Virus record (IMG/VR): IMGVR_UViG_3300022924_000206
Source of the DNA: an uncultured virus (IMG/VR IMGVR_UViG_3300022924_000206)
Taxonomy: Duplodnaviria > Heunggongvirae > Uroviricota > Caudoviricetes
Length of the DNA stretch: 64,000 nt
Strand: one strand, 5' to 3'
Part shown: positions 1 to 50,535 of the stretch, piece after piece
Layout of the letters: every line of letters starts with the position of its first letter
How positions within the stretch are numbered: the stretch's first letter is position 1
Position numbers and translations under genes: made by a program
The notes under the pieces: generated by a model
Databases searched by the model: none
What the model was told of the DNA's origin: nothing
Seen by the model: only the letters and a program-made list of their open reading frames with translations

Positions 1-12
1 TTTGAAGAGCAG

Positions 13-1146
13 ATGAAAGACGAATTGCTTTCAACTCATAAGCATGATCCAGAACTTGCTAAATCAGTACGAGAGCTTTTTGATTATCATATTCAGAACA
101 GTGATGATCCAGATGTGAAATCTCTTCTTGAGTATACTAAAGAAGAGTTAGCAACGGCCGATTCAGTGGTAAAACTCAATAGAATTTCAGCACTTTACTA
201 CAGCGCCGCCAATGACCTCGATGACGACGAGAACACAGCTGAAGCTTCGGATATGGTCGGTGTAGTCGCGGAAACGCTGAGGGAACACTATAGAGGGTTC
301 AGAACTGGTCTAATCAATAAGGACCTCCTCGAAGATGAAGAGGGCTATGTAGCCCCTCGAAGAGAGTTAACTAAACAGACCCTAGAGAAAGAAAGACAGC
401 GTAACCTAAACAATAAGCTAATAAATTCTTTAACTGAAAGCGGCCTTGTCAAAACAGAAGGCTACCAGGTCGCTATCGTTAGAAGTGACGAAAGCGAAGA
501 AACATTGGGAGAGTTTATCCGCAATACTCCCAATGATGCTGTTTTCTACGGAACCACGGGAATAGCTAAAAATGACGAAGCTAGAAAGATAGTAGAGGCT
601 AACGGCAATGCTCTTGTCAAAGCTTTCACCGTGGACGGAGAATTTTCTGCACCTTTGCAAATGTCGAGAGACACAAAAAGGTTACCGGAAGGTTTTGTCT
701 ATCTCGCCGCCGGAGCTGAGAGTAATGTATACCTCCACGAAGCCACCGGAACGGTTTATAAAATTCCCCATAGGGAAGCTATTACTAAAGATCGCTTCGC
801 CGGAGGAAACGAAGAAGACAAAGAGAGAAATTCACTCAACGCGGTTGTTTTCAATGCTGAAGCTGCCTATAAACTAATAGATAGGAAAACATTAGCGAAA
901 GATTACGGAGCTGAATATCTCACCACCTATTTCCTCTCCCTCAATGACGAATCAGGTAAATCGGTCGGAATTATCGTCCAGCCGTATCTTGACGGAGAGC
1001 GCTATATGGATTACTCATTAACCAATGAAGAGCGTTATGATCCTCAGGTAGCAGGGGTTAATGACATCCACGGTGGTAACGTAAGACTAGACAGAAAAAC
1101 AGGCAAGCTAGTATTGTTTGATTGCCTATTCCATAATGCCTTCTGA
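13..1146 (+). CDS. Protein with C-terminal protein-kinase-like (APH/Kdo-like) domain; probably 5'-truncated by the window edge
   Basis: Gly-loop-like LAAGAESNVY, VYKIP lysine, catalytic-loop-like DIHGGNV, LVLFD; the frame is open back to position 1. Confidence 0.55.
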   Translation: MKDELLSTHKHDPELAKSVRELFDYHIQNSDDPDVKSLLEYTKEELATADSVVKLNRISALYYSAANDLDDDENTAEASDMVGVVAETLREHYRGFRTGLINKDLLEDEEGYVAPRRELTKQTLEKERQRNLNNKLINSLTESGLVKTEGYQVAIVRSDESEETLGEFIRNTPNDAVFYGTTGIAKNDEARKIVEANGNALVKAFTVDGEFSAPLQMSRDTKRLPEGFVYLAAGAESNVYLHEATGTVYKIPHREAITKDRFAGGNEEDKERNSLNAVVFNAEAAYKLIDRKTLAKDYGAEYLTTYFLSLNDESGKSVGIIVQPYLDGERYMDYSLTNEERYDPQVAGVNDIHGGNVRLDRKTGKLVLFDCLFHNAF

Positions 1147-1147
1147 C

Positions 1148-1867
1148 ATGAGATACCATCTGAATGAGAAAGGCCCTGCAATTTGCAGGGCCAAAAGCGA
1201 TGATTCATGTCCCCTCGGAGCTAAGGATTCCAGTTCAATCCACTATGAGACGAAAGAACTCGCTCAAACAGCTTTCGAAGAAAAGTTAGCGCAAGAACAC
1301 GGAGGCAATCTCACAGCCTCTAAGAAAACTCCTAAAGTGATCGAAACTGAGTTTGATCCGTTCTCCCTAGTCGAGGATCCTCCCGGGGCAAAAAGCGGTA
1401 CCATCGTGAGAGCTAAAGACGGTACTCTACTAATAGTCTCCGACAATGACACTTACAATGAGTTCGGCGCCTACATGGTAGGAAATCTCACCAATGAGCC
1501 GGAAATAGCCGCAAAGCTCCATAAATTAGATCCTAGAAAGAATTACCAGGAAGGCTCATGTGATTCACTGTCATTCGCTCTGTTAGAAGCCAACGAGGAC
1601 ATCGTGGCTGTGGATGAATTAGTCAATGAGAGTGGGGAAATGTGGCATTCCATAGCTCGTCATAAAGACGGCTACTATATTGATTCCTTAGGGAAGTGGA
1701 GTGAGCAGGATCTTTACGATTATTGGGAGAGCATCGGTATTCGTGAAGACGAGGGTGAGTTCTCTTTCAAATATGATGTCCATGAAGAGCCGGGCAAAAA
1801 TCCCAATTTTGCCCCTGAAGATTCACTGAAACCTTTAGTAGTTTACTTAAATTCTCTTACTAAATAG
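1148..1867 (+). CDS. Hypothetical protein with N-terminal YH-C-CP-H module
   Basis: ATG at 1148 gives MRYHLNEKGPAICRAKSDDSCPLG...HYET, matching six other N-termini in the window. Confidence 0.75.
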   Translation: MRYHLNEKGPAICRAKSDDSCPLGAKDSSSIHYETKELAQTAFEEKLAQEHGGNLTASKKTPKVIETEFDPFSLVEDPPGAKSGTIVRAKDGTLLIVSDNDTYNEFGAYMVGNLTNEPEIAAKLHKLDPRKNYQEGSCDSLSFALLEANEDIVAVDELVNESGEMWHSIARHKDGYYIDSLGKWSEQDLYDYWESIGIREDEGEFSFKYDVHEEPGKNPNFAPEDSLKPLVVYLNSLTK

Positions 1868-1928
1868 TTCCTTTTTGAAGTGGTTCGCTTTGATATAAGA
1901 ACCGTATGAGAAACAGAAAGGCTTCGGC

Positions 1929-2048
1929 ATGAAAATCAAGTCGGCCAGGCGTATTGAGCCTGAGTTGTCCCGCTGCATTGAAGTAGACTCTCCAGATAGA
2001 CTCTTCGCAGCCGGTGGACTCTCCGGGCAGTCTTTTCTCTCTCACAAC
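1929..2048 (+). other. Split intein C-fragment (IntC, 40 aa)
   Basis: MKIKSARRI...CIEVDSPDRLFAAG...SHN followed by Ser+1; intein blocks F/G sit at the very N-terminus of the ORF. Confidence 0.85.
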
Positions 2049-3914
2049 TCTGTAGCTCAGAGAAACATTGTTTTCGGTTGTATTCTACGTCCTGACAGCT
2101 GGCGATTTCTCGGAATCGACCTTAAGCGAGTAGAGCTCTCGGTTTATCGTTCATACTCCAATGTTGTGCTCGGTATCGCCACAACACTTGAGGATGCGCT
2201 CACCGTTCTTCGATTCGCGCAACAAACAATGATGAAGCGCTACACAGAGCTTGAAACACTCGGACTCAACAACTTCCTGGATCTTCCAAATAAAGGTCAA
2301 GCATTAATGGTTATGGTGGACGAGGCCGGTGAGTTGCTCGGTTCCTCCGGTGTGAAGTCCCTTGCCGGAAGTACTTACATCCCAAATCTCAACGGCCGAC
2401 GTAACATGAGCGAAATCCAAATCGGGGATACTGTCTTCGACAATAAAGGAAACTTCACTAAAGTTCTCGACAAGTACACTCCTCTAGAGCAGGAGCAGTT
2501 CGATGTCACCATTAAGAATGCTCAATCTGTCTCTAGCGGGAAGCTAGCTAAAGAGGTTATTCGAGCAGGAGCGGATCACTACTGGGTAGTCACATGTCCT
2601 GATCCCGAGCACACTGATGACCACACACTAACCACCCGTGAACTCCTGTCAGAGCTGGAACTCACGGATCCTGACAAGACGTGGAAAATAAAGAGAGTTT
2701 TCACCGGTGTTCAGAATAACATTCAGACACTTCCGGTGGAGCCCGAAGTTTTGGGACAGTATCTCTCTGGACAAAACACTCTCTCCAACGAAGAGCTAGA
2801 ACTTCTAGGTCTCGAGAAAAATCAACGCACTCTACCGGATCTATACTTATACTCATCGGTGGATCAGAGATTAGAACTTCTCCATGGAATCTTCGGCTTC
2901 TACAGTGAAACCCCGATTTTCACCACCGAGGATCTATATCTAGTTCAAGATATTCAAAGATTGATCGTTTCACTCGGTTTCACACCTCGATTGAAAGAGA
3001 GCCCTTGGGGAATCGAAATTTCCTATGAGGATATTCAGGAGGATTGGTTCGAAATAGACAGCATCGTTCCCATCGAAAATGAAGAAAGTTTCGAGGAACT
3101 TTTTTGCCTAAGGGTAGATGCTCCGGATTCACAGTTCCTGTGCAGTGAGAATTTCGTTACTACCCACAACACCGACGAGGGTAAAGAGCAGGACATGCTC
3201 AAAGGTGAAGCCTCCATGATTATTGGTTCCGTCGCTCGTCTAGGTCGAGCCGCCGGTGTCCACTTGATTATTGCTACCCAGCGCCCTGACGCTACACTAA
3301 TCCCCGGTGAGACTAAAGCTAACCTCGGTGTTCGTCTAAACTGTGGTCGCACAGATTCCAACGCTTCATCTATGATCCTTGGTAACGGTGAGGGAAGCCG
3401 AGTGAAGGCTAACCCGCGTGGACGTTTATATCTATCTATCTACGGTAGAGGCGACCACGGACAGGGTTTCTTCGCTGATCAAACATGGATTGACGAATAT
3501 CTCGCCTCTAAGGGCCTCAACCCCGATGGTACTCCACTCTCAAGCAAGCAGTCACGACTTGCGAAGCTCACCGACTTCGGTTCCGACTTCGGAGAGGACA
3601 CCGACTTGGATGCCAAGTCTGGTATTGACAACTCGGCCATCATTGAGCAGATTCGTCAAGAAGAAGAGAACGGAATTTCTAGAGGCTCCGGTGATGAAAT
3701 CGACATTGACGAGCTTGTGGATGACGATTCAGAGGATTGGGGATTCTCCGATGACGGAGAGACTTCTGAAGAGCCGGTTGCCCGTTCTGACAATTGGGGC
3801 GGTTTAGAGCTCGGTAAGAGCACGGAAGATAAGAACAGGCGTCCGGAGGATGACTGGGATGATGAACTCGATGACCTTATCAATGACAACTTCGACGGAA
3901 AAGAACAAGAGTAA
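1929..3914 (+). CDS. FtsK/SpoIIIE-family ATPase, C-terminal half (N-terminal split-intein IntC plus internal intein; acidic tail)
   Basis: IDLKRVEL, Walker B VMVDEAGEL, ARLGRAAGVHLIIATQRPDA, GRL; Walker A absent, the extein begins at the Ser that normally follows GK. Confidence 0.85.
   Translation: MKIKSARRIEPELSRCIEVDSPDRLFAAGGLSGQSFLSHNSVAQRNIVFGCILRPDSWRFLGIDLKRVELSVYRSYSNVVLGIATTLEDALTVLRFAQQTMMKRYTELETLGLNNFLDLPNKGQALMVMVDEAGELLGSSGVKSLAGSTYIPNLNGRRNMSEIQIGDTVFDNKGNFTKVLDKYTPLEQEQFDVTIKNAQSVSSGKLAKEVIRAGADHYWVVTCPDPEHTDDHTLTTRELLSELELTDPDKTWKIKRVFTGVQNNIQTLPVEPEVLGQYLSGQNTLSNEELELLGLEKNQRTLPDLYLYSSVDQRLELLHGIFGFYSETPIFTTEDLYLVQDIQRLIVSLGFTPRLKESPWGIEISYEDIQEDWFEIDSIVPIENEESFEELFCLRVDAPDSQFLCSENFVTTHNTDEGKEQDMLKGEASMIIGSVARLGRAAGVHLIIATQRPDATLIPGETKANLGVRLNCGRTDSNASSMILGNGEGSRVKANPRGRLYLSIYGRGDHGQGFFADQTWIDEYLASKGLNPDGTPLSSKQSRLAKLTDFGSDFGEDTDLDAKSGIDNSAIIEQIRQEEENGISRGSGDEIDIDELVDDDSEDWGFSDDGETSEEPVARSDNWGGLELGKSTEDKNRRPEDDWDDELDDLINDNFDGKEQE
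2358..3170 (+). mobile_element. Cis intein (271 aa) with degenerate LAGLIDADG remnant
   Basis: Block A SLAGSTYIP..G...MSEIQIGDTVFD, block B GADHYW, RLELLHGIFG remnant, block F/G CLRVDAPDSQFL...THN, Thr+1. Confidence 0.85.
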
Positions 3915-4252
3915 GTAGTAATCGCTATCTTTTTTACGAAAAGTTACAAGAATTTCAAAAAATTTTAGCTATTCCGTTAAAAATTGACTTTCATTTCAAC
4001 CCTAAGTGAAAAGCCTAATTTTACGCGAGATTCTAAGGTTATTCATTACCAAAAATCGGTTCTAGCTACACGATTTTGGGTCTTTTTAGCGCTTTCTTTC
4101 AAAAAAGTTTGATTAAAAGTTGTATTGTTTGAACTATTCGTGCGATAATCCATATATATAGGTCTGCAACTGCGGAGCGTTTACTTCGTTTTTCGCTCAA
4201 TAGCTGCCGACAAGTATCGCCAAAAACCAACGAATTGAAGGAAATAAGAACA

Positions 4253-6331
4253 ATGAATAAGATTTTTCAGTCGGTGGCTGCTCTCACAGCTGGTGTGCTT
4301 GTCACTGCCGCTTTGACCGCAGGTGCCGTTCCCGCATTCGCCGAGGAACTCCCTCCCGAGACCGGTGAGACCACGACCACAGAGATTGTTGTCGATGAGA
4401 CTGTCCCCACAAACGAGGACACCACTGCCAACGAAGAGGTTGTAGTCCCCGAAGAGGTAATCCCGGAAGAAGCCGCTCCCGAAATTGAGGTTGCTGACGC
4501 TAACGTTCCTGGAGAAATCACGAACCTTGCTGTTTCTGTGAACCAGCTGAGCGCCACCGCAACGTGGAACGCCGCTACTGTTGACGGAGGTGACGCAGAC
4601 GCTATTCGTTATCAGGTGATTGTTTCCTCCGACACTGAGGTTGCCAACACTTTCGACACCGCTGAGACCACAATCACCGTCAATGAGCTAGTTGCGTTCT
4701 CCACCTATAACATTACAGTTATTGCTTACAACGAAGCTGGGGAGTCTCAGCCGGTTATTTCAAGCGATTTCGTTGCCGGTGATTCCGCCCCTAACGCGGT
4801 TTATAACCTAAAGGGTCTCGTGGCTTCCGGAAACTCCGGGCTAGATGTTAACGTTACTTGGGAAGCTGAAAACCCCGAGTACATGGCTGATGATGTCACT
4901 TACATTGTTGACACCTACAATGGCTCAACTCTTCTCGACAGCGCTACACTCACAGACACGAATTACACTGTGAGTGGAGTTGTTAGTGGTACAACCGTAA
5001 CCATCAATGTGACCGCAGTCTTCAATGAGCATGCCTCTGAACTACGAAGCATCAACGTGCTAGTTCAGCCCACCGTTCCCGGCTACCCCACCCTCAACGC
5101 TTACAATGAGGGAACAACAATCTACGCAGATTGGACAACCCCCAATGATGGTGGTTCTGCCATCACTGGTTATATCTTCGAGATTCTCGTCGGCAATGAG
5201 GTTGTTGTTCGTAGTGAACTAGGTGCACTATTCCACTTCCGAACTACCCCCGGTCTAGCACCCAACACGGCCTTCACCGTAAAGGTCACCGCCATCAACG
5301 CGATTGGCGCCGGCGAAGCAGATCAGGTGACAGTGGTTACTCCGGTAATCGTTCCTACGGCTGCTCGTAATGTTACCTACGCTAACGGAGCAATCAACTG
5401 GACTGCCCCCACCAGCAACGGTGGCGAGGCTGTTTCCTACGCTGTGAGTGTGTTCAACTCGGCTCAGGAACTTGTTGAGTCCGGTGATGTAACCACCACG
5501 AGCTACGCTCTCACTGAGACCTACCCGGTAGGCGATTACACCGTGAGCGTCACTGCCTCAAACAGTGCTGGTGAGGCTGACGCCGCAACCGGAAGCTTCA
5601 CGAAGATCGCTGTCCCTTCGGCACCGACTTCAGTTAAGCTAGCTGTTAGCTCCACCAATTCCCTCACCGGAACTTGGAATGCTCCAGTAAGTGGTACCGG
5701 TATCACTAAGTACATTGTTGAACTCATCAACGTGACCGCAGGAACCTCCACCGTGGTGGAGACCACCGCAACCTCTGCCAACTTCACAAACCTTGCGGCT
5801 GACAGCGAGTTCACGTTCACCGTAAAAGCAGTCAATGATGGAGGAACTAGCCTCGCTAGCGCCGCTGCTGATTCTGTATTCACCGCCCCGGCCGCATTGA
5901 GCGACCCCCTTACAGAGGAAGAGGCAAAGGAAATTGCTGCTAACACACCGATTTCTTACACCCTCGAAAACGGCATCATCTCGTTTGATGTTTCCGCTGA
6001 AGAATGGTACGCCGGTGTTGCTTACTCAACTCCCACCGCTCTCGGATGGGTTTACTCCTCGGCTACCGGCCGTGTGAGCTTCGATGTCTCTAGCCTCCCG
6101 GCTGGAAACCACACATTCCTGCTTTACAATGCAGCTGGTAATGTGGTCGGAGGAGCAAGCTTCGCTATTGCTGGAGCCGTCACCGGCACTGGAACCACCA
6201 CTGGCGCACTAGCCAGTACCGGTGTTGAGGTTGTTGGTTCAATCGCAATTGCCGTGTTCGCTCTTCTCGCAGGAGCCGCACTATTGATTGCATCACGTCG
6301 CCGTCGCGTTGCGGTCACCGTCGCCAACTAA
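4253..6331 (+). CDS. Secreted fibronectin type III repeat surface protein with LAxTG sortase anchor
   Basis: Signal peptide ending AFA; several FN3 repeats (W..P..GG..ITGY, V.A.N..G); C-terminal LASTG, hydrophobic helix and RRRR tail. Confidence 0.85.
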   Translation: MNKIFQSVAALTAGVLVTAALTAGAVPAFAEELPPETGETTTTEIVVDETVPTNEDTTANEEVVVPEEVIPEEAAPEIEVADANVPGEITNLAVSVNQLSATATWNAATVDGGDADAIRYQVIVSSDTEVANTFDTAETTITVNELVAFSTYNITVIAYNEAGESQPVISSDFVAGDSAPNAVYNLKGLVASGNSGLDVNVTWEAENPEYMADDVTYIVDTYNGSTLLDSATLTDTNYTVSGVVSGTTVTINVTAVFNEHASELRSINVLVQPTVPGYPTLNAYNEGTTIYADWTTPNDGGSAITGYIFEILVGNEVVVRSELGALFHFRTTPGLAPNTAFTVKVTAINAIGAGEADQVTVVTPVIVPTAARNVTYANGAINWTAPTSNGGEAVSYAVSVFNSAQELVESGDVTTTSYALTETYPVGDYTVSVTASNSAGEADAATGSFTKIAVPSAPTSVKLAVSSTNSLTGTWNAPVSGTGITKYIVELINVTAGTSTVVETTATSANFTNLAADSEFTFTVKAVNDGGTSLASAAADSVFTAPAALSDPLTEEEAKEIAANTPISYTLENGIISFDVSAEEWYAGVAYSTPTALGWVYSSATGRVSFDVSSLPAGNHTFLLYNAAGNVVGGASFAIAGAVTGTGTTTGALASTGVEVVGSIAIAVFALLAGAALLIASRRRRVAVTVAN

Positions 6332-6420: not shown

Positions 6421-6912
6421 ATGGCTAAATACCACATTTCAAAAGATGGTACACCGCGTCCCTGTGGCGCCGTGAAAGGGCAATGTCCCTATGGTGAAGA
6501 AGTTCACGGTAACTTTGATAATGATGTCGAAGCTAGACAGTTCGCTGAAGAGTATCTGGAGAAGAACCACGGTCTTTTCAATGAGACTCAGCCGGTTCAT
6601 CCTAAGCCAGCGGTAACCGTCGGGGAACTAGGTGGACCATCGGCTCCAGTGTTAGCAAGATCTAGTGAATTCCCCGGAACTTTCAACGTGGATGAAAACG
6701 GACTTAACGAAGCTGGAAAACATTTCGATGAGATCACCGGCGGCACCGTTTCACCCATGATTAGAGACCTAGCACTCAACATGGCAGCGAGTGACATCCG
6801 TAACGGCCATGAAACTAGAGCCCTGAGTAACCTAACTAGTTTCATGGATCTAACAGGTGCCTACCGTATTTATGCAGCGCTAGTAGCTGGTTCAGAGGGC
6901 AATAAAGTTTAG
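6421..6912 (+). CDS. Hypothetical protein with N-terminal YH-C-CP-H module
   Basis: MAKYHISKDGTPRPCGAVKGQCPYGEEVHG; GGAG RBS. Confidence 0.8.
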   Translation: MAKYHISKDGTPRPCGAVKGQCPYGEEVHGNFDNDVEARQFAEEYLEKNHGLFNETQPVHPKPAVTVGELGGPSAPVLARSSEFPGTFNVDENGLNEAGKHFDEITGGTVSPMIRDLALNMAASDIRNGHETRALSNLTSFMDLTGAYRIYAALVAGSEGNKV

Positions 6913-7002: not shown

Positions 7003-8493
7003 ATGACCAAGTACCACATTTCAAGCGACGGCACACCACGCCCTTGCAGTGCAGATAAAGGCCACTGTCCTTACGGCGCCGAGGTCCACGGAGAGTTCGA
7101 TACTCCCAACGATGCTCGTAGATTCGCCGAGGAGTACCTCGAGCGTAACCTTGGTCTATTCGAGGCTAACTCCCGTAAAGCTGGACAGGTTGCTCGTGAG
7201 CAGTCCCAGTTTAACAAAGACGGTGGAGACGATTTCCGCTCACTATCAGAGGCTCAGATTCGTGAAGCTCTCCTAAATCCCGGTTCACCTATCGCTTTCA
7301 ACGAAGACGGTTCTCTTTCCACCCCTCCAAGTGGTTCCCTCCAGGATCCCATTGATCTAGCTAACCTCAAGCCTGAAGATGCTGAAAGACTACTCAAAGC
7401 TAACAACTACAGTGACGAGCAAATTGCTAATCTCAAACGTGACTTCGGGGATCTTGCGGATAAGGCGCTTATCACAGCCGCCACCGCCGAGCTCATGACT
7501 GGTCCTCCACAGCGCCACGTGCGTTTCAGTGAAGATCCTGACGACAACTACAGCTTCTCCATGACAAACTTTGAAGAGGTCGGACTCTCAATCGGTTTGC
7601 TCCAGGAGGACCCTAACTCTCACTTCATCGTACCAGTGAGTGACCCTAAGGCCGCTCTGTCTTGGATGCAAGTATCCAATCCGGCTAACAACGTTTTCCA
7701 GATTCAAGAGCACACCGGGACTAACCGTCTCTACATGCCTCAGACCGCCAACAAGAATGTTCAAGGTGAAGCAGGCCGTAAGCTTGCCCTTCTTTCAGAC
7801 ATCGTTGGCAATAGTTCATCTTCAATCGAAGATCTCGCTAAGAGCAACGGAGATTTCCGCCGCCTACAGCGTGATCTAAGAGTTGAATACAAGGACCTAG
7901 AAAAACTCCGTACCGGAAACTACGGTAACGGTAGAGATGGTAGCCCGCTAACTAAAGAGGCTTACGTAGCAAGCATCGAAGTCAATGGTCGCGACTGGAT
8001 GGTCCGTGATTTGAAGCAGACCGTCGGCGTTGACTCATCCGAGGAATCCTACGGTGCTGCCGAGCTCAAAGGTATGAAGCCAACTCAGTCTGGTATCAGT
8101 GTTCTTCAAGTTCAGGGTATGGCTAACGCTACCATCAAGAAGTTCGGTGACAGAGTCTTAGCTGAGAAAAGCTCACTCGAAGCACTTCCAGCAGGAGAAA
8201 GAGCAGTTCGTGTGCAGCAGCTCCTTAACGAATCCATGGGTAAGGCAACCATTGTTACTCGTGACAATTACATTCTAGATGGCCACCACGGGCTAGCCAA
8301 GGCTGCCCTAATGAACTCAGCTCTTTCCAACGGTACCGTCGCCCGTCGCCTTGAGAAAATGGGTGTAAACTTCCCGCTCCCCAGCGAGGCAAGACTTCCC
8401 GTGGTGAAGTTAGACATGGACGGTGGGCAGGGCTTTGACGCTCTCACCTACTGGACAGAAAAGAACGGATTCCCTGTTTCAGGGATGAAGTGA
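7003..8493 (+). CDS. YH-C-CP-H module protein with C-terminal ParB/Srx-like domain
   Basis: N-terminus near-identical to the 6421 gene; C-terminal MKPTQ...IVTRDNYILDGHH motif. Confidence 0.65.
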   Translation: MTKYHISSDGTPRPCSADKGHCPYGAEVHGEFDTPNDARRFAEEYLERNLGLFEANSRKAGQVAREQSQFNKDGGDDFRSLSEAQIREALLNPGSPIAFNEDGSLSTPPSGSLQDPIDLANLKPEDAERLLKANNYSDEQIANLKRDFGDLADKALITAATAELMTGPPQRHVRFSEDPDDNYSFSMTNFEEVGLSIGLLQEDPNSHFIVPVSDPKAALSWMQVSNPANNVFQIQEHTGTNRLYMPQTANKNVQGEAGRKLALLSDIVGNSSSSIEDLAKSNGDFRRLQRDLRVEYKDLEKLRTGNYGNGRDGSPLTKEAYVASIEVNGRDWMVRDLKQTVGVDSSEESYGAAELKGMKPTQSGISVLQVQGMANATIKKFGDRVLAEKSSLEALPAGERAVRVQQLLNESMGKATIVTRDNYILDGHHGLAKAALMNSALSNGTVARRLEKMGVNFPLPSEARLPVVKLDMDGGQGFDALTYWTEKNGFPVSGMK

Positions 8494-10531: not shown

Positions 10532-12802
10532 TTACTTGACGAATTTAGCGGTGAAGCCACTCGGGCTCATAAACGTGAGTCCCAATTTGGTGGCTTTTTG
10601 AACTTTGGCGGAAGTTTCACTAGGATCACCGATCACATAGGTAGTGTCAGCCTTTGGTCCCGAGTGGAAGGTACCACCGTTAGCCTCCACGTAATCGACC
10701 CATTGACCACGATTGCCAAAACCAGGAGGAACGGAGCCGGAGATAGCAAAACTAATTCCACTTAGATCCACGGCGGTGGGTGACGGTGCCGGTTTAGCGG
10801 CTCCCTCGCCAAAGGTTACTCCTGCTGCCCGGAGCTTGTCGATGAGTGGGCGGCGCTGCTTCAAACCTGTATAGATCTTTTCGGCTTTAATCTCACCGAA
10901 CCCGTCCATGGCGGCAATCTGATCCTTAGATGCAGCAAGAATACCATCGAGGTCACCGAACTTACGCTCTAGATCCTTTGATGCGCTTCTACCGAGAAGG
11001 TCAATTGCTAGCGCCGGAAGCATTTTCGCTAACGGACGAGTTTTTGATTTCTCAATGTATTCAACAATGTGGGTAGCTCTCTTCTCTCCCAATCTACGAG
11101 GGTTACCGTTTACGGATTCTCCTAGCTGAGAATCGGCTAGCTCCTCCATGGTCAAGCTATAGAGGTCAGCCATATCTAGAACTCGCCCGATTGAGTTGAG
11201 GTACTCTAGGGAAGATTCACTCATGCCGTCAATATCCATGTAGCTCTTGCTAACGGCCGTCTTCAAAGCGAAGAATTTACGGGAATCACAGTCATTGTTT
11301 GGGCAACGAAGAGTCCGCGGAGGCCAGATCTTTTCCTCTTTATTGAAGCTCAGAAGAGTTCCACATGAGGGGCACTGATTAGGAACCTGAACCTCTTCGG
11401 TGCCTTCGGGATTTGAGATAACAACTTTGATCTGCGGAATGATCTCGTTAGCCTTCTCGATGAGAACAATGGAGCCCACGCGGATACCCTTAGTAGCTAC
11501 CAAGTTGTAGTTGTGAAGAGAGGCGTTCTGAACGGTGGAACCGTCTAGTTCCACGGCACGAACTTTCGCCACCGGAGTCACCTTACCGGAACGTCCCACC
11601 GTGATGCTAATGGAAAGCACCTCGGTGGTGGCCGTGGCAGCAGGATACTTCCAAGCTACCTGAGAGACGGGGTGGTGAGATGTGTAACCCATGGATGAAA
11701 GAAGTTCCGCCTCATTGGTGGGCTTGATGACCACACCGTCCGTGGGGAAATCGAAGTTCTCTCGAAGCTTACCGAATTCATGGACAGCCTCCATGAGCTC
11801 AGCGTTGGTGTTGAAACCACTCAAAACTAGGGTTGGGGTAGCCTTGTCAGTGAACTCATCAATGGAAACGAAACCCTGATCCCCAAGTTCAGTGAGCTCA
11901 TCCGGTTTACCGTTCTTGATAACCGAGTAGGCGGCGAAGGTGAACTCAACGGGATAGTCGACACCACTCTTAGCGGCCTTCATTAGTCCCGTGGCCGAGT
12001 TACGAGCATTCTTAAAGCGTTGGCCAGTGCTTTTGAATCTTTCTTCGTCCACGGCTTTGAACTGAGAGTTAGTGAAGAAAAGCTCACCGCGAATCTCGAG
12101 AGATTCCAACTCAGAAATAGTGTTCTCTAGCCCCTTGACTTTTACCTTGGGGTCCCGAATGAGATAAGTGGTGTCCTCACCGTGGGTACCGTCACCACGG
12201 GTGGAAAGCCTAAACAATTTTCCGTTGGCATATTCCGCAGCAACGGCCAAACCGTCCATTTTAGCCTGGAGGCGGAAGTCCTTGGCGCCCGCAGCGCGAG
12301 CTTTGTCAAGGAAAGAAATAAGGTCTCTTTCCTCTTTAGCCTTGGCGAGTGAAAGCATGGGGAGAGCATGCTCAACTGTTTCACCCTCTGCCGTGGTTCC
12401 TAGAGCCGGGTCATTCTCAAGAAGATTGAAACCCTTAGAGCCCTCGGCGAAAATATCTTCGTAAGCACCTGAATCGGCTAGCTCCTGAAGATACTCAAGT
12501 TTAGCATCGAACTCCTCGTCCGTGAGCGGGGATTCAATACCTTTTTGGTAGTAAGCATCCGAAGCTTCGTAAAGCTCATCCACCATGGACTGCACCGTCT
12601 CGGGGGGAATAGCTATGGTGTTCTTCTTCTTAGTGAGCTGACCGACTCGATACTCGTCTGCCATGAGCTCTTCTGCGGCAGTTTGAGCAGCTGCGAATGA
12701 GTCGTAGTGCTGATCGGCACCGCCTAGAGGGCAATTACGAATAGAGGCTGAGCACGGTTTAGCACCGTCAGGCGTTACATGAAAAAGGGTACTTGATGAC
12801 AC
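10532..12802 (-). CDS. ligA: NAD-dependent DNA ligase with an added N-terminal FH-C-CP-H module
   Basis: Domain Ia YY...D.EFD, PMLSL, adenylation motif KMDG, TRGDG, EIRGE, DGVVIK, OB fold GRSG, Cys4 zinc finger, HhH repeats, BRCT-like tail. Confidence 0.92.
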   Translation of the reverse strand: MSSSTLFHVTPDGAKPCSASIRNCPLGGADQHYDSFAAAQTAAEELMADEYRVGQLTKKKNTIAIPPETVQSMVDELYEASDAYYQKGIESPLTDEEFDAKLEYLQELADSGAYEDIFAEGSKGFNLLENDPALGTTAEGETVEHALPMLSLAKAKEERDLISFLDKARAAGAKDFRLQAKMDGLAVAAEYANGKLFRLSTRGDGTHGEDTTYLIRDPKVKVKGLENTISELESLEIRGELFFTNSQFKAVDEERFKSTGQRFKNARNSATGLMKAAKSGVDYPVEFTFAAYSVIKNGKPDELTELGDQGFVSIDEFTDKATPTLVLSGFNTNAELMEAVHEFGKLRENFDFPTDGVVIKPTNEAELLSSMGYTSHHPVSQVAWKYPAATATTEVLSISITVGRSGKVTPVAKVRAVELDGSTVQNASLHNYNLVATKGIRVGSIVLIEKANEIIPQIKVVISNPEGTEEVQVPNQCPSCGTLLSFNKEEKIWPPRTLRCPNNDCDSRKFFALKTAVSKSYMDIDGMSESSLEYLNSIGRVLDMADLYSLTMEELADSQLGESVNGNPRRLGEKRATHIVEYIEKSKTRPLAKMLPALAIDLLGRSASKDLERKFGDLDGILAASKDQIAAMDGFGEIKAEKIYTGLKQRRPLIDKLRAAGVTFGEGAAKPAPSPTAVDLSGISFAISGSVPPGFGNRGQWVDYVEANGGTFHSGPKADTTYVIGDPSETSAKVQKATKLGLTFMSPSGFTAKFVK

Positions 12803-14337: not shown

Positions 14338-15846
14338 TCAGGATTCGTAAAGCTCATCGAAATAAAGCGGATTAGGTGCTTTAGAACGAGCGCTATCTAA
14401 AGAGGCAAAACCAGCTTTTACGGCTTTCACGAGCTCATGTTCCATGGTGGTGCCGGTGTCTTCCATGTACTGACGAATACCAAGCACATCGCCCTTGAGC
14501 ACCATTTGCTTCAGTTCGCTGTTGATTTCAAGAACCTCTCGAACAGCGGTACGTTTCTTCCCATCCGGAGATTTCACGAGGGTCTGAGTCATCATTCCAC
14601 GAAGGTTATCCGCGAGGGTGGCAAGAACTCTAAGCTGCTCGTCACCCTCGTACATGGAGCGAATACGGTTAATAGTAGCGGGGCAGCTCGTGGTGTGCAG
14701 AGTCGAAATAGCTAAGTGGCCGGTCTCCGCGGCACGAAGAAGCTCGTCGATCTCTTCACGGTTACGAACCTCACCCACGAGGATGATGTTAGGAGCCTGA
14801 CGCATGGCGGAGGTCAAAGCTGCGGCGAAGGTTCTAGAGTCCTTACCAACTTCACGCTGAGTAATATAAGCCTTCTGTCCGGGCTTTACCCCATAAACGT
14901 ACTCAATCGGCTTCTCAATGGTGATGACCTTCTCAGCTCTAGTCATCTGAATCTCTTGAACCAAAGAGCTCAAGGTGGTGGACTTGCCGGAACCGGTAGG
15001 ACCATTTACTAGAACCAAGCCGTTAGGAAGGTTGACCCAGTTTCTCATATTCTGAGGAATATCCAGCTCATCCGGAGTAGGCATGGTAGCGGCGATCACA
15101 CGGAACACCATGAAGATATTGCTCTCTGTTTTACCCACGGAGAGACGCAGCCGTCGCCCCTTGTACTTACCGGACTTAACAACATAGCTAGTATCGAGCT
15201 CTAGCTCCTCAACGAAACTTTGCTCAAGAACATTGGAGATAATGGTCTGCTGTAGACGAACCGTCATGTTAGAGTCTATTTCACCAAACTCAGAAATACG
15301 TCGAATCTCACCGAGGACAGTGAACGCAACTTCATCGAAGGGAGCAAGGTGGATATCCGACGCTCCGGCCTCGATAGCCATGCCAATGACAGCATCGAGA
15401 TCGAGGTTAGAACCCTCGAAATCCATCTCATCCTCGAGGGATCGTGGTGATGAATAATCATCAATGGATGCCACCGGAGCAAGGGGCTCATCCGGCTCAA
15501 GAGTTCCGAGAAGATCTTCTAACGAATCAGTAGCCTCATAGCTGTACTCGTTATCCGTTAGAAGATCCGCCGGATCAAAAACTGTCTCTGGCACCGTTAG
15601 CTCAGGAATACCGGAGCCGGTCTCCACCCCGTCATAGTCAATCTCCCCGAGAAGAGACTCAAGGTCCGGCATCTCCGGCTCCTCCTCTTTACCGCTAGGT
15701 AGAGAGGTCGGCATTGAGTCAGGAAGCGCTATTGATTCTGGAAGGTCTGAAAACTCAGGAAGTTCAGATGGACCTTTAGCCTTAGGGAAAATACCTAGCT
15801 CTTCGTCGTCATCGTCATCAAGAAGAGGATTACGATTGTCAACCAT
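14338..15846 (-). CDS. pilT: PilT/PilU-family type IV pilus ATPase with long acidic N-terminal extension
   Basis: ASDIHL, Walker A GPTGSGKST, TIEKPIEY, QREVG.D, RQAPNIILVGEVR, TGHLAISTLH. Confidence 0.85.
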   Translation of the reverse strand: MVDNRNPLLDDDDDEELGIFPKAKGPSELPEFSDLPESIALPDSMPTSLPSGKEEEPEMPDLESLLGEIDYDGVETGSGIPELTVPETVFDPADLLTDNEYSYEATDSLEDLLGTLEPDEPLAPVASIDDYSSPRSLEDEMDFEGSNLDLDAVIGMAIEAGASDIHLAPFDEVAFTVLGEIRRISEFGEIDSNMTVRLQQTIISNVLEQSFVEELELDTSYVVKSGKYKGRRLRLSVGKTESNIFMVFRVIAATMPTPDELDIPQNMRNWVNLPNGLVLVNGPTGSGKSTTLSSLVQEIQMTRAEKVITIEKPIEYVYGVKPGQKAYITQREVGKDSRTFAAALTSAMRQAPNIILVGEVRNREEIDELLRAAETGHLAISTLHTTSCPATINRIRSMYEGDEQLRVLATLADNLRGMMTQTLVKSPDGKKRTAVREVLEINSELKQMVLKGDVLGIRQYMEDTGTTMEHELVKAVKAGFASLDSARSKAPNPLYFDELYES

Positions 15847-16509: not shown

Positions 16510-17661
16510 ATGACAAAATACCACATCAACCCAAAAACGGGTAACCCCGGAGCGTGTTCAGCCGCTCCCGGAGCCTGCCCCTTCGGCGGGGAGGCCAATC
16601 ACTACGAAAGCGCTAGCGATGCCCGCAAGGCTTTCGAATCCGCGAACACCACGGCCCCGGCGCTAGCTAAGAAGCCTGGAGTACGGCTAGAGAATAGAGC
16701 AGCGAAACACACTCCGGCGGCCACCTGGTCAGCGTTCCCAGAGACCGCTACCGATGAAGAACTAAAGAACGCTTCCGCCTACGCCGTGGTAAACAACAAG
16801 TTCGTAGCCATCACCGTGAAAGATACTCGTAACCCAGAGACAGATTTCACTAATTTGAGTGACTACGATGGAGCCGACTACCTCCACGTGGGAACTAAAT
16901 CCTACCTCATAGGAACACCGCAGGGAAACTTCATCAAGGTCTCCTACACCGCCGCCGTGGACGCTCAACGAGATGACTCATGGGAATTCAGCCCGGAAAT
17001 TTCAGCCTCCTACGCCTACTACAAAACTTTGGTGGACTTGAAAGCGAACACTCCTCAGGACGAAGTGAAACACCACACGGTGGACGATGAATCCATCACT
17101 AGAGAAAAAGGGCACAACTACGAGAGAAACGCCTACGATCATTACTCAAGCTCCTCAGCCCGCTCCGTGGCCGTGAGAGCCCTCAACGAGCTACCTCGCC
17201 CCTACGACATCGCTCGAATCGCCAGCCTGAAGAACTCGGATGTGAAACTTCCCAAAGAGACTATCCTCGGTGACAAGTACTTCCGCCACGCCAACCCAGA
17301 GGTTAGAGCGGCCACCGTGGCCCGTAAAGAGTTCCCAGCTGAAGCTCAAGCAGAGGCCCTAAAAGACTCAAGTTTCACCGTGCCCATCGCTCTAGCCCAG
17401 CGCCCGGATATCCAAAAAGAGCACATCGAAACCCTGCTAGCCATGGATAACCGTTGGACTCAATCCGACAATGGTGACTACGGAACCCCGAGATACCACC
17501 TGGTGAAGAACGAGAAACTACCTCTACGACTAATGAATAAGCTAGTCAAGGAAGGAACAGTTATAGACATGAGAGCCCTCCACAACAATAGAGGCCTTCC
17601 ACCGAAAGTTCGTGAGGCACTCGAGGCAAGAGCTAAAGGGCTAGCTCTCCGCCTGTGGTAA
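16510..17661 (+). CDS. YH-C-CP-H module protein with C-terminal helical (LRV/HEAT-like) repeats
   Basis: MTKYHINPKTGNPGACSAAPGACPFGGEANHY; AGGAGG RBS. Confidence 0.75.
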   Translation: MTKYHINPKTGNPGACSAAPGACPFGGEANHYESASDARKAFESANTTAPALAKKPGVRLENRAAKHTPAATWSAFPETATDEELKNASAYAVVNNKFVAITVKDTRNPETDFTNLSDYDGADYLHVGTKSYLIGTPQGNFIKVSYTAAVDAQRDDSWEFSPEISASYAYYKTLVDLKANTPQDEVKHHTVDDESITREKGHNYERNAYDHYSSSSARSVAVRALNELPRPYDIARIASLKNSDVKLPKETILGDKYFRHANPEVRAATVARKEFPAEAQAEALKDSSFTVPIALAQRPDIQKEHIETLLAMDNRWTQSDNGDYGTPRYHLVKNEKLPLRLMNKLVKEGTVIDMRALHNNRGLPPKVREALEARAKGLALRLW

Positions 17662-29704: not shown

Positions 29705-29732
29705 ATGCAGCTATTAAAGAATGGATTTGAAA

Positions 29733-30560
29733 ATGACTGAAAACAATTCCCTCAAGAAGATCGTTCGAGCTCGCATGGCTATCCTCGGCGAAAATTACAC
29801 CACGGCTAAGGTAAATCTTTACAATGGTGAGCCGCAAACACTTAGAGCACTTTTTGGTGAGAGTGGGCTAGCGCAGCTTCAATCCTCAGCGCTCAAGGAT
29901 AATCCCGGTTTGATTGTAGTTTGTGGTAAATCGGGGGCGGGTAAAACCTCTACGGTTGCCTCATTGATCCGACACTATGAAGAGGCAGGAGCTACAGCCC
30001 ATGCCCGAACAGTGATTCTAGAAAATGATTTAGAGCTTGCCCCGCTCGTTAACGGGAGTGGTGAACAGTTACCTTTGACATCAATGGTTCCTAAAGGGGA
30101 TGTGACACTGGAACAGCTGCTCCGTGCAGCCCTTAGGACGCGGCCCGATCTCATCGTTGTGGGCGAAATTCGTTCCGCATCTGTTCTTCAGCCTTTCATT
30201 CGCTCACTAAGCAGCGGCTATAGCGGGATCACCACTTTACATGGGAACGGACTTCGTCAAATCTTCGGAAGATTATCGGCGCTAAGTTCTTCTAAGGAAT
30301 CTACTCATGGACTAATCGACTCGCTAGCGGTTATTGTGGAACAGAGTAGGATCTCGGTGGATAATGACTCAGTTGTACTCACCGCCGTAATTCCCATGGG
30401 AGACGAGCTTCGTAAACTCGCTAAAACCGGGGCCACCGATGAACAATACCAGCTCACATTGGAATCCCTAGGTATCGAATCGTTAGCTATGAAGCTAGCG
30501 ACCCTCCAGGCAGCCGGTCTCGTTAAATCAGTTGAGGGAAAACTTATTTACATGAGCTGA
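29733..30560 (+). CDS. T2SS/T4P/T4SS-family (GspE/PilT-like) ATPase with N-terminal K..R.RMA..GE.Y peptide
   Basis: GKSGAGKTS, ILENDLEL, ALRTRPDLIVVGEIR, TTLH. Confidence 0.75.
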   Translation: MTENNSLKKIVRARMAILGENYTTAKVNLYNGEPQTLRALFGESGLAQLQSSALKDNPGLIVVCGKSGAGKTSTVASLIRHYEEAGATAHARTVILENDLELAPLVNGSGEQLPLTSMVPKGDVTLEQLLRAALRTRPDLIVVGEIRSASVLQPFIRSLSSGYSGITTLHGNGLRQIFGRLSALSSSKESTHGLIDSLAVIVEQSRISVDNDSVVLTAVIPMGDELRKLAKTGATDEQYQLTLESLGIESLAMKLATLQAAGLVKSVEGKLIYMS

Positions 30561-32624: not shown

Positions 32625-32697
32625 TGCACGATCTCGGTGAGTTAGATCATTGATATTTTGATTAATGTAAGTGAACTAAAATCAAGGATACTTGTCG

Positions 32698-33111
32698 ATG
32701 AAAAAGATTCAAAAAAGATTCGCTAAAAGAGACGAGCGAGGGTTCACTCTCATCGAACTTGTAATAGTTGTTGCACTCATCGGTATTCTCACCGCCATCG
32801 CAATTCCCGCCTACGGAGCCATTCAACATACTGCTCGCGTGAATGCTGTAGAGCTAGCTGCTTCAAAGGCCTATACTGCCGGATTGGTTACCATAGCTAA
32901 CGATGAACCTTTCCTCAACACTGCAGGTCAAGTTATCCCCGATTGCCATAGTGGGGTTGTGAGTGAACCGGCTGTAGGTGACGCCGGCCCCATTGTGGTG
33001 GCGCAGCCCAACGGAGAGACACTGTTTCTTTACGCTAGGTGGATTTACGCAGACGGAACTGAGGCCGAAGGTACTGACACTAACAAACCAAATGATCAGA
33101 ATAACTGCTGA
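32698..33111 (+). CDS. Type IV pilin / prepilin-type N-terminal methylation domain protein
   Basis: Class III signal ERG|FTLIELVIVVALIGILTAIAIP. Confidence 0.9.
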   Translation: MKKIQKRFAKRDERGFTLIELVIVVALIGILTAIAIPAYGAIQHTARVNAVELAASKAYTAGLVTIANDEPFLNTAGQVIPDCHSGVVSEPAVGDAGPIVVAQPNGETLFLYARWIYADGTEAEGTDTNKPNDQNNC

Positions 33112-33290: not shown

Positions 33291-34433
33291 GTGTCTGTTA
33301 TGTCTAATCCAATTATTCCTATCTCTTCAATTGAGCTTCAGCGAGCGCTGGCTCTTCGTGACCTGAGTGACCCTAGTCAAGGTGCTCACGGTATTCAACT
33401 AATCCTCAATGAGCTCACCGTGGGGATTGCCGATAAGATTCAAACGTCTCTCCGAGTGGAGCGCCCTCACCCTGTGGTTACGGTGGAAAGTAACTACGAT
33501 GCTTTACTAATTCCTGAGGGGGTTGCGACTCGGGAGGCTCGTTATACTCGCTATGTGAACGAAACTCACATGCTACGCTCCCACACCTCAGCTGCGCTTC
33601 CTCCGCTGTTGAAAAAGTACGCTGAGCTCGAATCATCGGTGGATGTGCTTTTGGCGGTGCCGGGGCTTGTGTATCGCCGAGATCAGGTTGATCGAACCCA
33701 TGTGGGTGAACCGCATCAATTGGATCTTTGGCGTTTGTCATCCAACAAAGACCTAACCGGTGAGAGACTTCTGGAGCTCATGGGCTCGGTAGCTCATGCG
33801 GTGCTCCCATCGGCCGAGTGGAGAACGATTCCTGCTGTTCATCCGTACACGGTGGAGGGGCTCCAGTTGGAAGTACGTCTCCACGGTGAATGGTTAGAGC
33901 TCGGGGAGGGAGGTTTGATTCATCCTCAGCTCATGAGAGCGGCAGGACTTCCGGATACCTACAGTGGGTTAGCCATGGGCCTGGGTCTAGATAGAGCACT
34001 GATGCTTCGAAAAGGCTTGACGGATATTCGCTACCTACGTTCAAGCGTTCCAGCGGTAATGGAACAATTGAATACTTTAGAGCCCTGGATTCCTGTGAGT
34101 CAACAGCCGGCCGCTAAACGAGATGTGAGTATCGCTCGGAATGATCTTTTAGATGACGAGATTCTTGGGGATTTGTGCCGCCAGGCTCTTGGCGATGATT
34201 CCTCTTTGTTGGAGGAGGCGGTCATAGTTTCCACCGCAACCCACGAAGAGCTCCCGAAAGCCGCCCATGAGCGCTTGGGTATGACAACGGAACAAACTAA
34301 TGTTCTTATCCGCTTGACACTTCGCTCGCTAGAGCACACCCTCACCGCGGAAGAGACTAACGAGCTTCGTGATCGGATCTATCTAAGTATCCATCAGGGA
34401 AGCAATATCTCAGAGCTTACCGTTACTAAATAA
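33291..34433 (+). CDS. Monomeric PheS-like class II ligase with FDX-ACB domain (resembles the SrmL-type 'PheS-related' family)
   Basis: LRSHTSA, motif 2 VYRRDQVDRTH...HQLD, HPYT, ELGEGG, motif 3 GLAMGLGLDR, DIRYL; C-terminal RDVS...RSLEHTLT.EE. Confidence 0.8.
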   Translation: MSVMSNPIIPISSIELQRALALRDLSDPSQGAHGIQLILNELTVGIADKIQTSLRVERPHPVVTVESNYDALLIPEGVATREARYTRYVNETHMLRSHTSAALPPLLKKYAELESSVDVLLAVPGLVYRRDQVDRTHVGEPHQLDLWRLSSNKDLTGERLLELMGSVAHAVLPSAEWRTIPAVHPYTVEGLQLEVRLHGEWLELGEGGLIHPQLMRAAGLPDTYSGLAMGLGLDRALMLRKGLTDIRYLRSSVPAVMEQLNTLEPWIPVSQQPAAKRDVSIARNDLLDDEILGDLCRQALGDDSSLLEEAVIVSTATHEELPKAAHERLGMTTEQTNVLIRLTLRSLEHTLTAEETNELRDRIYLSIHQGSNISELTVTK

Positions 34434-49917: not shown

Positions 49918-50535
49918 ATGAGCGCGCACACCATTGATGAAATTCTTACTGTCACCACGGCGGAGCTTCTCCGAGCTGGCGGAGTAGATAACTGGGAGTG
50001 GTACGGTGATTCTCTAGAGGATTACGTTCGTTCCGATGATGAGCTTGAGGATGCCGAGAGCTTCCTTTCCTCACTTGCCTCCGGAGGCGTAGACAACTGG
50101 GACTGGTATGGCGCAAGCCTCGAAGGTCTCGATGAGTACGAAGAGTACCTCAACTCGCTTAGCGATGTCGCCACCGCTGACAGCTTCTATGCGTGGAAGA
50201 ACGCGGCCGAGACGGCTGCCGCAGCAATTGTGGTGGTTCCGGAGCCGGCTGTTGTCGTGGTGGAGAAGCGTCTTGTCAAGGGGGATACTGAGAAGAAGCT
50301 TCACGAATACATCTCCGCAAAGTACGGTGAGGCTCGTGCTGACGAGATTTTTGAGAAGGCTATCGAGGCAGGTTTCTGGAAGTACTCCAACTTCCAGAAG
50401 GAGTACGCCAAGGCAGTGAAGGTCATCGTGGAGGGACTCGAGAATCCCCTTGAGCACGCTCGCGCTGCACTGTTCGCCGCCGTTGTGAAGAACAAGAAGA
50501 TTGACGGATTCCTTGACACCGTAGCCACGAGCTAA
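49918..50535 (+). CDS. Phage-like protein with duplicated GGVDNWxWYG motif
   Basis: GGVDNWEWYG and GGVDNWDWYG. Confidence 0.7.
   Translation: MSAHTIDEILTVTTAELLRAGGVDNWEWYGDSLEDYVRSDDELEDAESFLSSLASGGVDNWDWYGASLEGLDEYEEYLNSLSDVATADSFYAWKNAAETAAAAIVVVPEPAVVVVEKRLVKGDTEKKLHEYISAKYGEARADEIFEKAIEAGFWKYSNFQKEYAKAVKVIVEGLENPLEHARAALFAAVVKNKKIDGFLDTVATS

Follow-up and report, generated by a model that had tools for sequence, protein, structure and literature searches.

A putative class-3-type split intein in three pieces at the Walker A motif of an FtsK-like ATPase of huge phages

Introduction

The DNA studied here is a stretch of 64,000 nucleotides, referred to below as the window, of an uncultured virus of the Caudoviricetes (IMG/VR IMGVR_UViG_3300022924_000206). 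Close to its start lies an open reading frame (ORF) for the C-terminal half (C-half) of an FtsK/SpoIIIE-like ATPase, and this ORF opens with a short C-terminal intein fragment (IntC) (Table 1). An earlier note, made from the sequence alone, had proposed that the ATPase is assembled from two separated genes by a split intein of the conventional kind. Our analysis points instead to three genes. With a probability of roughly 70%, the window ORF is the third of three genes for one FtsK/SpoIIIE-like ATPase, in which a class-3-type intein in the Walker A motif GGGK/S has been broken twice (a slash marks a splice junction, and square brackets enclose alternative residues).

Results and discussion

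An intein fragment at the start of the C-half gene

Translation of the C-half ORF gave an N-terminus reading MKIKSARRIEPELSRCIEVDSPDRLFAAGGLSGQSFLSHN/SVAQRNIVFG, exactly as it had been quoted in the earlier note. An in-frame TAA stands 33 nt upstream, with positions 1896-1940 translating to a stop followed by EPYEKQKGFGMKIK, and the start of the ORF therefore cannot be extended in that direction. The first 40 residues contain intein blocks F and G, end in His-Asn and are followed by Ser as the +1 residue; they align to residues 882-920 of P0365, a protein with a contiguous intein. The FtsK_SpoIIIE profile of Pfam (PF01580) matched residues 41-120 of the C-half (profile positions 53-134 of 221; 36.2 bits, cut-off 24), so the match opens just after the P-loop. 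PHROG 1358 (FtsK/SpoIIIE-like) matched residues 421-522 (1.8e-26). Both the Walker B segment MVMVDEAGE and the downstream motif ATQRPD are present, and together with the PF01580 match they identify the extein as an ATPase of the FtsK/SpoIIIE type.

The Walker A motif GxxGxGK[ST] is not intact in this protein. Its final Ser is all that the C-half holds, the preceding GGTGGGK being encoded on another protein (P0204, described below), and Walker A would be restored only by ligation of the two halves. The position of the break could be read from P0091, an 813-aa relative without the insertion, whose extein runs ...GGATGGGK/SVVQRNI; GGATGGGKSVVQRNI. The uninterrupted GGGK/SVVQRNI of this protein places the break exactly at GK/S, between the Lys and the Ser of Walker A, which is where it had been thought to lie.

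A protein search with the C-half returned 601 relatives at E<=1e-3, and motif counts refer to the best 120 of these 601. The pattern C[IL]xV...[ST]HN/S[VIM]xQ occurs near the start of 108 of the 120, with Asn at position 40 in 74 of them. The 12 relatives without it are P0002 and P0077 (truncated start call), the intein-free P0091, P0116 (a tandem FtsK without inteins), P0117 (an odd fragment) and seven proteins with a different intein site (P0097, P0099-P0101, P0103, P0104, P0118). In an alignment of 51 sequences with 51%-80% identity to the window protein, residues C16, I17, V19, L25, H39, N40, S41 and V42 are invariant, and the ATPase motifs of the extein are also kept. Because the motif recurs in 108 of 120 relatives and C16, H39, N40, S41 and V42 never vary, the IntC at the start of the C-half is, judged by its conservation, not a product of chance, and its assignment to intein blocks F and G stands.

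The architecture of the C-half is not an assembly artefact either, because two additional runs, made in other studies, have contigs that extend from the stop of the upstream gene across the spacer to the ATG and show 0 differences there (X2 record 3, 1802-2014; X3 record 11, 1822-1972). This settles a doubt that had been raised about the break region. The contigs of X1 were left out as a possible source of the window itself.

The N-terminal half ends in a block A tail

The N-terminal half (N-half) of the ATPase is absent from the window, and the earlier statement that no partner is encoded nearby was borne out. By Pfam, none of the 78 other ORFs of the window is FtsK or intein (0/78), and a tblastn search of all 64 kb with a true N-half (P0204) gave chance matches only, the best at E 0.13. 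A tblastn search of the window with the middle gene (see below), ORF A and the N-half likewise found nothing.

We then turned to five related IMG/VR records of 189-438 kb. In these, PF01580 matched only other P-loop ATPases (ClpB-like, PilB-like) besides the C-halves. The N-extein was recovered only with the 329-residue N-part of P0091 and not with PF01580; this query detected an N-half in all five records (E 4e-70 to 2.5e-55). Each record has one N-half, with two identical copies in G004, an inverted duplicate record. The N-halves end in ...GGGTGGGK, a very short tail and a stop, as in SWDSNTLIEVLNADKTPSQS and SLSVDTLVEIINKEQ.

A protein search with one of these N-halves yielded 184 relatives, and the following counts refer to the best 120 of the 184. 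All 120 have the P-loop followed by [SA]L[SA]xDTxVxV.. and a stop. The median length of the tail is 17 aa, and it does not exceed 25 aa in 98 of the 120, with ~11-20 intein residues (block A) after GGGK. Intein position 1 is Ser in 82 and Ala in 38. The tails read [SA]L[SA]xDTLVxV, with DT, NT or ET at residues 5-6 in 107 of 120, which corresponds to block A/N1, and they run out in variable, non-conserved extensions before the stop.

The window ORF is identical to P0001, which was found on one contig of 683,316 bp, and the window is part of a huge-phage genome. P0204, a protein of 348 aa that was also found on one 683,316-bp contig, ends in GGTGGGK, a 15-residue block A tail with Ala at position 1 (ALSADTLVRVLDEEK) and a stop. 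It is almost certainly the N-half of the window genome itself. The partner that the earlier note expected elsewhere on the replicon was thus found on a contig of the same size as that of the window ORF. That note had described the partner as an FtsK N-terminal sequence ending in the P-loop, followed by intein blocks A and B and a stop; the FtsK N-extein ending in GGGK, a Ser or Ala at position 1 and the stop were all there, but block B was not on the N-half.

Two further features accompany the N-half. An extra contiguous mini-intein (CLTGDTKV...VHN/C) lies 11 residues upstream of the split junction in L027:1492-2916 (G001), and the same mini-intein occurs in 15 of the best 120 of 184 N-halves (471-487 aa), so that two inteins flank CFIGGGTGGGK in these proteins. 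The gene directly downstream of the N-half (G002 L028:2828-3958; G001 L027:2983-3927) has helix-turn-helix-like regions and a segment ...EVNGLYWHS... or ...EFNGLYWHS..., which by eye recalls free-standing homing endonucleases of the Vsr/PD-(D/E)xK type; its Pfam matches were weak only.

A free-standing gene carries the middle of the intein

The fragments linked to the exteins add up to 15 + 40 = 55 residues and lack block B. No HINT fold is possible with 55 residues and no block B, and the two-gene model therefore fails as stated: a two-piece split intein consists of two extein-fused fragments that together make a whole HINT domain, whereas here the N-half tail has block A alone and block B is encoded by a third, free-standing gene.

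This gene came to light with the Pfam model Intein_splicing, which in the five related records gave two matches in short frames, both covering only the middle of the model. In G004 the match (model positions 38-135) falls within an open frame of 267 aa that lies ~1 kb downstream of the N-half; in G001 it (model positions 37-86) falls within one of 211 aa. The middle-gene ORFs themselves have 220 and 210 aa and are without blocks A, F and G. They begin ...FGDLxxGDxIxG..., hold ...KASGNHLWYVE... and end ...VGRIMNTEQMIEYGDGLEIP.... The model found no other orphan intein fragment in the five records, but the IntC escaped it too.

A protein search with one middle ORF returned 30 relatives. Among them was P0262 (203 aa), again on one contig of 683,316 bp. 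P0262 has no extein; it comprises blocks N2/B (SGNHLW), a conserved helical insert of ~110 aa and the strand and helix that normally precede the insertion point of the homing endonuclease. In an alignment of 13 middle-gene sequences, S50, G51, N52 and H53 never vary, W55 is conserved to at least 90%, and the His of block B/N3 is in place. Compared with inteins of solved structure, the middle-gene profile aligned from chain residue 17 on, block B included, to 6rix_A and 6riy_A (E 3.2e-6), 6riz_A (gp41-1; E 3.1e-5) and 6bs8_A (E 1.4e-4). As the match runs from intein residue 17, the middle gene begins where the tail of the N-half stops.

The profile detected the middle gene in all five related records (E 9.4e-98 to 3.4e-70). 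In each of them it shares the strand of the N-half, which precedes it by 0.9-8.4 kb, and the C-half follows after ~89-117 kb. A search of 1.84 billion cluster representatives with the profile gave 589 matches at E<=1e-3, of which 78 were at E<=1e-30, and the length was 180-260 aa in 106 of the 109 middle-gene relatives examined (P0241-P0349). Going by these matches, the middle family is widespread and free-standing. The window has no middle piece by tblastn with the block-B-containing IntC of P0097/P0104, which found the known IntC only (E 0.001), and with the middle piece as query BLASTP gave no significant match to the window ORF, second intein included.

In an AlphaFold model of the middle piece (mean predicted local distance difference test score, pLDDT, 77.3), the insert (~60-130, 150-180) was confidently folded and the intein-derived ends were poorly defined, as would be expected of an incomplete fold. 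A Foldseek search of the PDB with this model gave no match at E<=0.001; the best rows were MarR-type winged-helix proteins at E 0.05-1.

The middle gene sits inside a conserved block of three genes (L035:635-2919, L036:647-2920, L037:636-2962). Upstream in the block is an ORF of 281-291 aa without a Pfam match, whose stop overlaps the start of the middle gene, and downstream is a membrane protein of 222-233 aa with an end that by eye resembles Bax-inhibitor-1/YccA proteins.

Three pieces of one intein

Whether the pieces have a common origin can be judged from proteins in which the intein is unbroken. Of 40 long proteins examined among those matched by the middle-piece profile, ten (P0365, P0368, P0375, P0383, P0384, P0389, P0394, P0399, P0409, P0412) are FtsK-like with a single contiguous intein at the site G[ST]GK/...C..V...THN/S[VT]xQR; the remaining 30 either are other host proteins with inteins related to this one or showed no such motif. 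P0365 (1385 aa) has an intein with visible LAGLIDADG motifs at the site GK/...HN/SV. The three proteins map onto it collinearly and without overlap: P0204 on residues 15-268, including GGGK and block A (E 4e-13), P0262 on 277-430 (E 3e-9) and P0001 from 882 onward (E 4e-40).

The end of the middle piece was located by aligning the last 41-47 aa of P0262 to five contiguous alleles, with 200 shuffles each. The tail aligned to residues 621-661 of P0365 (z 7.0) and 536-582 of P0412 (z 5.3), scores that 0 of 200 shuffles reached in either case. The alignment to 587-625 of P0375 was marginal (z 3.4; 2/200 shuffles), and none was significant for P0383 (z 0.8; 41/200) or P0394 (z -0.9; 170/200). In P0375 the first LAGLIDADG-like motif is at residue 654, after the region aligned to the tail. 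The end of the middle gene thus lies near the start of the homing-endonuclease domain, at the canonical split site.

Another relative, P0397 (360 aa), has GGGK, block A and the middle part in one chain and thus represents a two-piece form. Since P0365-type proteins, P0397 and the form of the window genome were all found, contiguous, two-piece and three-piece alleles of what by homology is one insertion are all still extant. In the five related huge-phage records the N, middle and C genes occur together on one strand in the order N-middle-C (5/5), and P0001, P0204 and P0262 are each on 1 contig of 683,316 bp. At the level of sequence, there is good support for the architecture in three pieces and for their common origin.

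Intein class and related inteins

Class 3 inteins have no Cys at position 1, a Cys at C2:4 and a W/C/T triplet (Hoffmann et al. 2020, PMC7891396), and rare deviations at C1:5 have been reported among them (PMC7891396). In the present pieces, position 1 is Ser or Ala. Cys16 (RCIEV) occupies C2:4, a position assigned by eye from the alignment to contiguous class-3-type inteins. The Trp at N3 position 12 is present in P0262 (SGNHLW), and 78 of the 109 middle-gene relatives have the block-B Trp. The residue pattern (Ser/Ala1, block-B Trp, C2:4 Cys, Ser/Thr-His-Asn) is thus class-3-type, and the likeness that had been drawn to the class 1 inteins DnaE and gp41-1 does not hold.

The window ORF contains a second, contiguous intein, which reads SLAGSTYIP...ADHYW...LFCLRVDA...VTTHN/T and also has the class 3 pattern (Ser1, Trp, Cys, Thr). 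Relatives of ~380 aa without it read SGVK/TDEGK, and the extein resumes at residue 415. By eye, its centre (LPVEPEVLGQYLSGQ..., LLHGIFGFYSE) looks like a decayed LAGLIDADG region; no LAGLIDADG match was found in it by Pfam.

Further inteins of this type were seen in the related phages. In G001, a contiguous class 3 DnaB intein starts ALSLDTPIPT and ends VRCIQVD...THN/T at its own GK/T site. The DnaB-like helicase (L041:760-3060, G001) and a PilB/T2SSE-like ATPase (L042:208-3186, G005) have contiguous class-3-type inteins at Walker A GK/T, and P-loops seem to be a hot spot for such inteins in these phages. The sister FtsK-like C-halves P0097, P0099-P0101, P0103, P0104 and P0118 have a different split intein five residues upstream (…THN/TGGGKS). 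In P0097 and P0104, which were seen in full, the IntC has ~101-118 aa with block B (GRVHCDGRHIW) and the block-F Cys. Going by its sequence, the P0097 type resembles the "atypical" splits with a short N fragment, here at a second site in the P-loop.

Proposed mechanism

From the architecture, the homology, the co-occurrence of the genes and the conserved catalytic residues we infer that the three pieces splice. The N-half has a membrane-anchored N-extein ending in GGTGGGK, followed by its block A tail. The middle piece would pair with IntC at the canonical split site, and the short N tail would dock as the first strands and complete the HINT fold. Cys16 of IntC (C2:4) could then attack the Lys-Ala bond at the N junction to give a branched thioester, from which the acyl group would be transferred to Ser+1. 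Cyclisation of Asn40, followed by an O-N shift, would restore GGGKS, and the second, contiguous intein (2358-3170) would splice in cis.

A possibility that we raise tentatively is that the middle piece acts as a separately expressed, trans-acting splicing co-factor, the active ATPase being assembled only when and where the middle protein appears. Two inert halves of a membrane-anchored DNA motor would then await the middle protein, and its ~110-aa insert, which may be winged-helix-like, could serve as a sensor or localiser. If true, huge phages would possess a natural protein switch with three inputs and a new post-translational layer of gene control.

Alternative explanations

Several results weigh against an intein that splices from three pieces. 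The middle piece scored 12.4 bits with Pfam Intein_splicing, against a cut-off of 35.8, and its tail is significant for only two of the five contiguous alleles (P0365, P0412). The canonical residue at C1:5 is Thr; the window has Ser38, and the relatives have Ser in 63 and Thr in 45 of 108, Ser being a conservative variant. Of the 109 middle-gene relatives, 31 do not show the block-B Trp (Phe 13, other residues 11, motif not found 7). The placement of the three genes on the same contig is deduced from the equal size of 683,316 bp and the contig count of 1, not from coordinates. A tblastn search of loci from the lineage of the window itself did not find the middle gene within 10 kb downstream of the N-half, so the linkage between the two is looser there than in the five relatives. 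A complex prediction that combined the tail of the N-half (residues 290-348) with the head of the C-half (residues 1-110) and with the middle piece, each entered as an alignment, reached 0.15 against a mark of 0.32 and, run with no controls, speaks neither for nor against.

The two deviations from class 3 would also suit three fragments that fold but no longer splice, and that hold the ATPase halves and the split P-loop together as a non-covalent clamp. We regard such a clamp as unlikely. The residues that serve the chemistry alone (Cys16, His39, Asn40, Ser+1 and the block-B His) are invariant or nearly so at 50-60% overall identity, a clamp needs neither the terminal His-Asn nor a +1 nucleophile, and an unspliced Walker A would have 15 + 40 foreign residues between its Lys and its Ser. 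A conventional two-piece split is very improbable. It would require an N-intein of ~100 aa behind an N-extein at some other place on the replicon, and a middle gene that has no relation to this intein or is part of another split gene. Two-piece forms of the same intein do exist in relatives (P0397), and the complete 683-kb contig extends beyond the scanned sequence, but the only N-half found on a contig of 683,316 bp ends 15 aa after GGGK and the N-halves listed (best 120 of 184) are all short-tailed. Moreover, the closest embedded homologues of the middle gene are FtsK inteins at the same site, the middle gene travels with the N-half in 5/5 relatives, and in the five records the Pfam search that also missed IntC brought up no other orphan intein fragment.

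Smaller still is the chance that the pieces are functionless leftovers of gene decay. Such a history would fit the broken state of the gene and the low scores of every piece with standard intein models, but the three ORFs are intact with starts of their own and recur in hundreds of clusters (601, 184 and 589 matches), the ATPase motifs of the extein are retained and the same structure was found in independent runs. Just as slight is the prospect that a contiguous intein is translated from segments already joined in the DNA or RNA, for example after the DNA between them has been excised. The collinear order of the three genes on one strand (N-middle-C, 5/5 relatives) would agree with it. Each segment, however, has its own start codon, with a Shine-Dalgarno-like site and an in-frame stop 33 nt upstream in the case of the window ORF; the N-tails end in variable, non-conserved extensions and a stop; the gaps of ~1-8 kb and 89-117 kb hold ordinary phage genes; and no joint was seen in the contigs examined, which were DNA contigs only, as the sequencing runs listed with this sequence included no RNA run.

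Relation to known split inteins

Inteins in three pieces have been made by engineering. Ssp DnaB was divided at S1 and S0 (Sun, Yang and Liu 2004, via review PMC11766414), and three-fragment versions of Npu DnaE and gp41-1 have been engineered in a study according to which natural inteins are found only as one gene or two (bioRxiv 10.1101/2023.01.30.526203). The synthetic inteins resemble the present one in having a short N piece with block A, a middle without extein and a short C piece with blocks F/G, and the breaks are alike: one after the first strands (S1-like) and one at the endonuclease insertion point (S0, canonical). They differ in being engineered and of class 1, whereas the present pieces are natural, widespread in huge phages, with class 3 residues and an extra middle domain of ~110 aa.

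AceL NrdHF has been described as the first split class 3 intein, and no split variants were reported among 1701 class 3 inteins in nr (PMC7891396). No other natural split intein of class 3 came up in our literature search. Like the present intein, it is a natural split without Cys1, has the block-F (C2:4) Cys and is of metagenomic origin, but it has two pieces of canonical lengths in a ribonucleotide reductase-related gene, compared to three pieces in an FtsK-like P-loop here. In the "fractured genes" of Dassa et al. (2009, PMC2677866), a free-standing endonuclease gene lies between the halves of a split intein. These share with the present case a phage or metagenomic gene split at an intein, and by eye an endonuclease-like gene after the N-half in G001 and G002; their two pieces lie close together, whereas here there are three, the last ~89-117 kb away. 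As far as it was available, a paper on huge gut phages mentions inteins in general terms only.

The contiguous P-loop inteins of phages and mycobacteria, such as those of DnaB (6rix, 6riy and 6bs8, "Replicative DNA helicase"), are inserted, like the present one, between the Lys and the Ser/Thr of Walker A. We take these PDB entries to be class 3 inteins of M. chimaera and M. smegmatis (PMC7664689). The contiguous inteins are single polypeptides that splice in cis, unlike the three pieces described here. Atypical split inteins of the AceL-TerL and VidaL type have a very short N fragment, with the rest (~100 aa) on the C-extein. Here, too, the N-extein protein has block A only, but the C-extein is joined to just 40 aa, the remaining part of the intein having a gene of its own. 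The P0097-type relatives (101-aa IntC, THN/TGGGKS) look more like the AceL-TerL/VidaL class.

Our literature search, with subscription journals mostly outside its coverage, found no natural three-piece intein and no split intein in FtsK. Judged from its sequence, the intein of the window genome would be the first natural three-piece split intein. Protein ligation, labelling and logic gates all draw on split inteins as central tools, and three-piece versions have until now had to be engineered. A natural three-piece family maintained by selection would offer ready-made orthogonal parts, in which one partner is tagged with ~11-15 aa and the other with 40 aa, junctions without Cys (Ala/Ser at position 1, Ser at +1) and a separate protein that gates the reaction. 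It would also mean that intein fragmentation can go further than thought, through contiguous, two-piece and three-piece alleles of the same insertion, and one may ask whether the middle piece serves huge phages in timing the assembly of a DNA translocase.

Genomic context

Table 1 Features of the C-half gene and of other genes in the window.
Feature	Position (strand)	Length	Remarks
In-frame stop TAA	1896-1898		33 nt 5' of the C-half ORF
Shine-Dalgarno-like AGAAAGG	1915..1921 (+)		purine-rich; 7 nt before the ATG of the C-half; read directly
C-half gene	1929..3914 (+)	661 aa	FtsK/SpoIIIE-like ATPase with IntC at its N-terminus
IntC	1929..2048 (+)	40 aa	block F/C2 with Cys16 (RCIEV); block G/C1 ending Ser38-His39-Asn40
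Ser+1 codon	2049..2051 (+)		first C-extein residue, the Ser of Walker A GxxGxGK[ST]
C-extein part 1, residues 41-143	2049..2357 (+)		ATPase core after the P-loop, through Walker B (MVMVDEAGE) to SSGVK
Second, contiguous intein, residues 144-414	2358..3170 (+)	271 aa	between SSGVK and TDEGK
C-extein part 2, residues 415-661 and stop	3171..3914 (+)		remaining FtsK ATPase (GSVARLGRAAGVHLIIATQRPD...), acidic C-terminal tail
ORF upstream of the C-half	13-1146 (+)		weak "Kinase-PolyVal" polyvalent-protein match, E 0.014, below cut-off
Huge-phage gene content by Pfam	10532-12802 (-), 14338-15846 (-), 29721-30560 (+), 32692-33111 (+), 33291-34433 (+), 49918-50535 (+), 58130-59533 (+)		NAD-dependent DNA ligase, two PilB/T2SSE-like ATPases, prepilin-type N-methylation motif protein, PheRS-alpha-like, AlaRS-like, T7 gp5.9-like RecBCD-inhibitor domain
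ORFs with a similar N-terminal motif	1118-1867, 6421-6912, 7003-8493, 16510-17661 (all +)		

A megablast search of window positions 1-6000 against GenBank phages gave no match. Four ORFs of the window begin with a similar motif, (M)xKYHIxxDGTPRPC...G.CPYG.EVHG or a variant of it (Table 1), and L034:2924-4387 starts in a similar way. This start looks like a small Cys-rich module common to otherwise different proteins.

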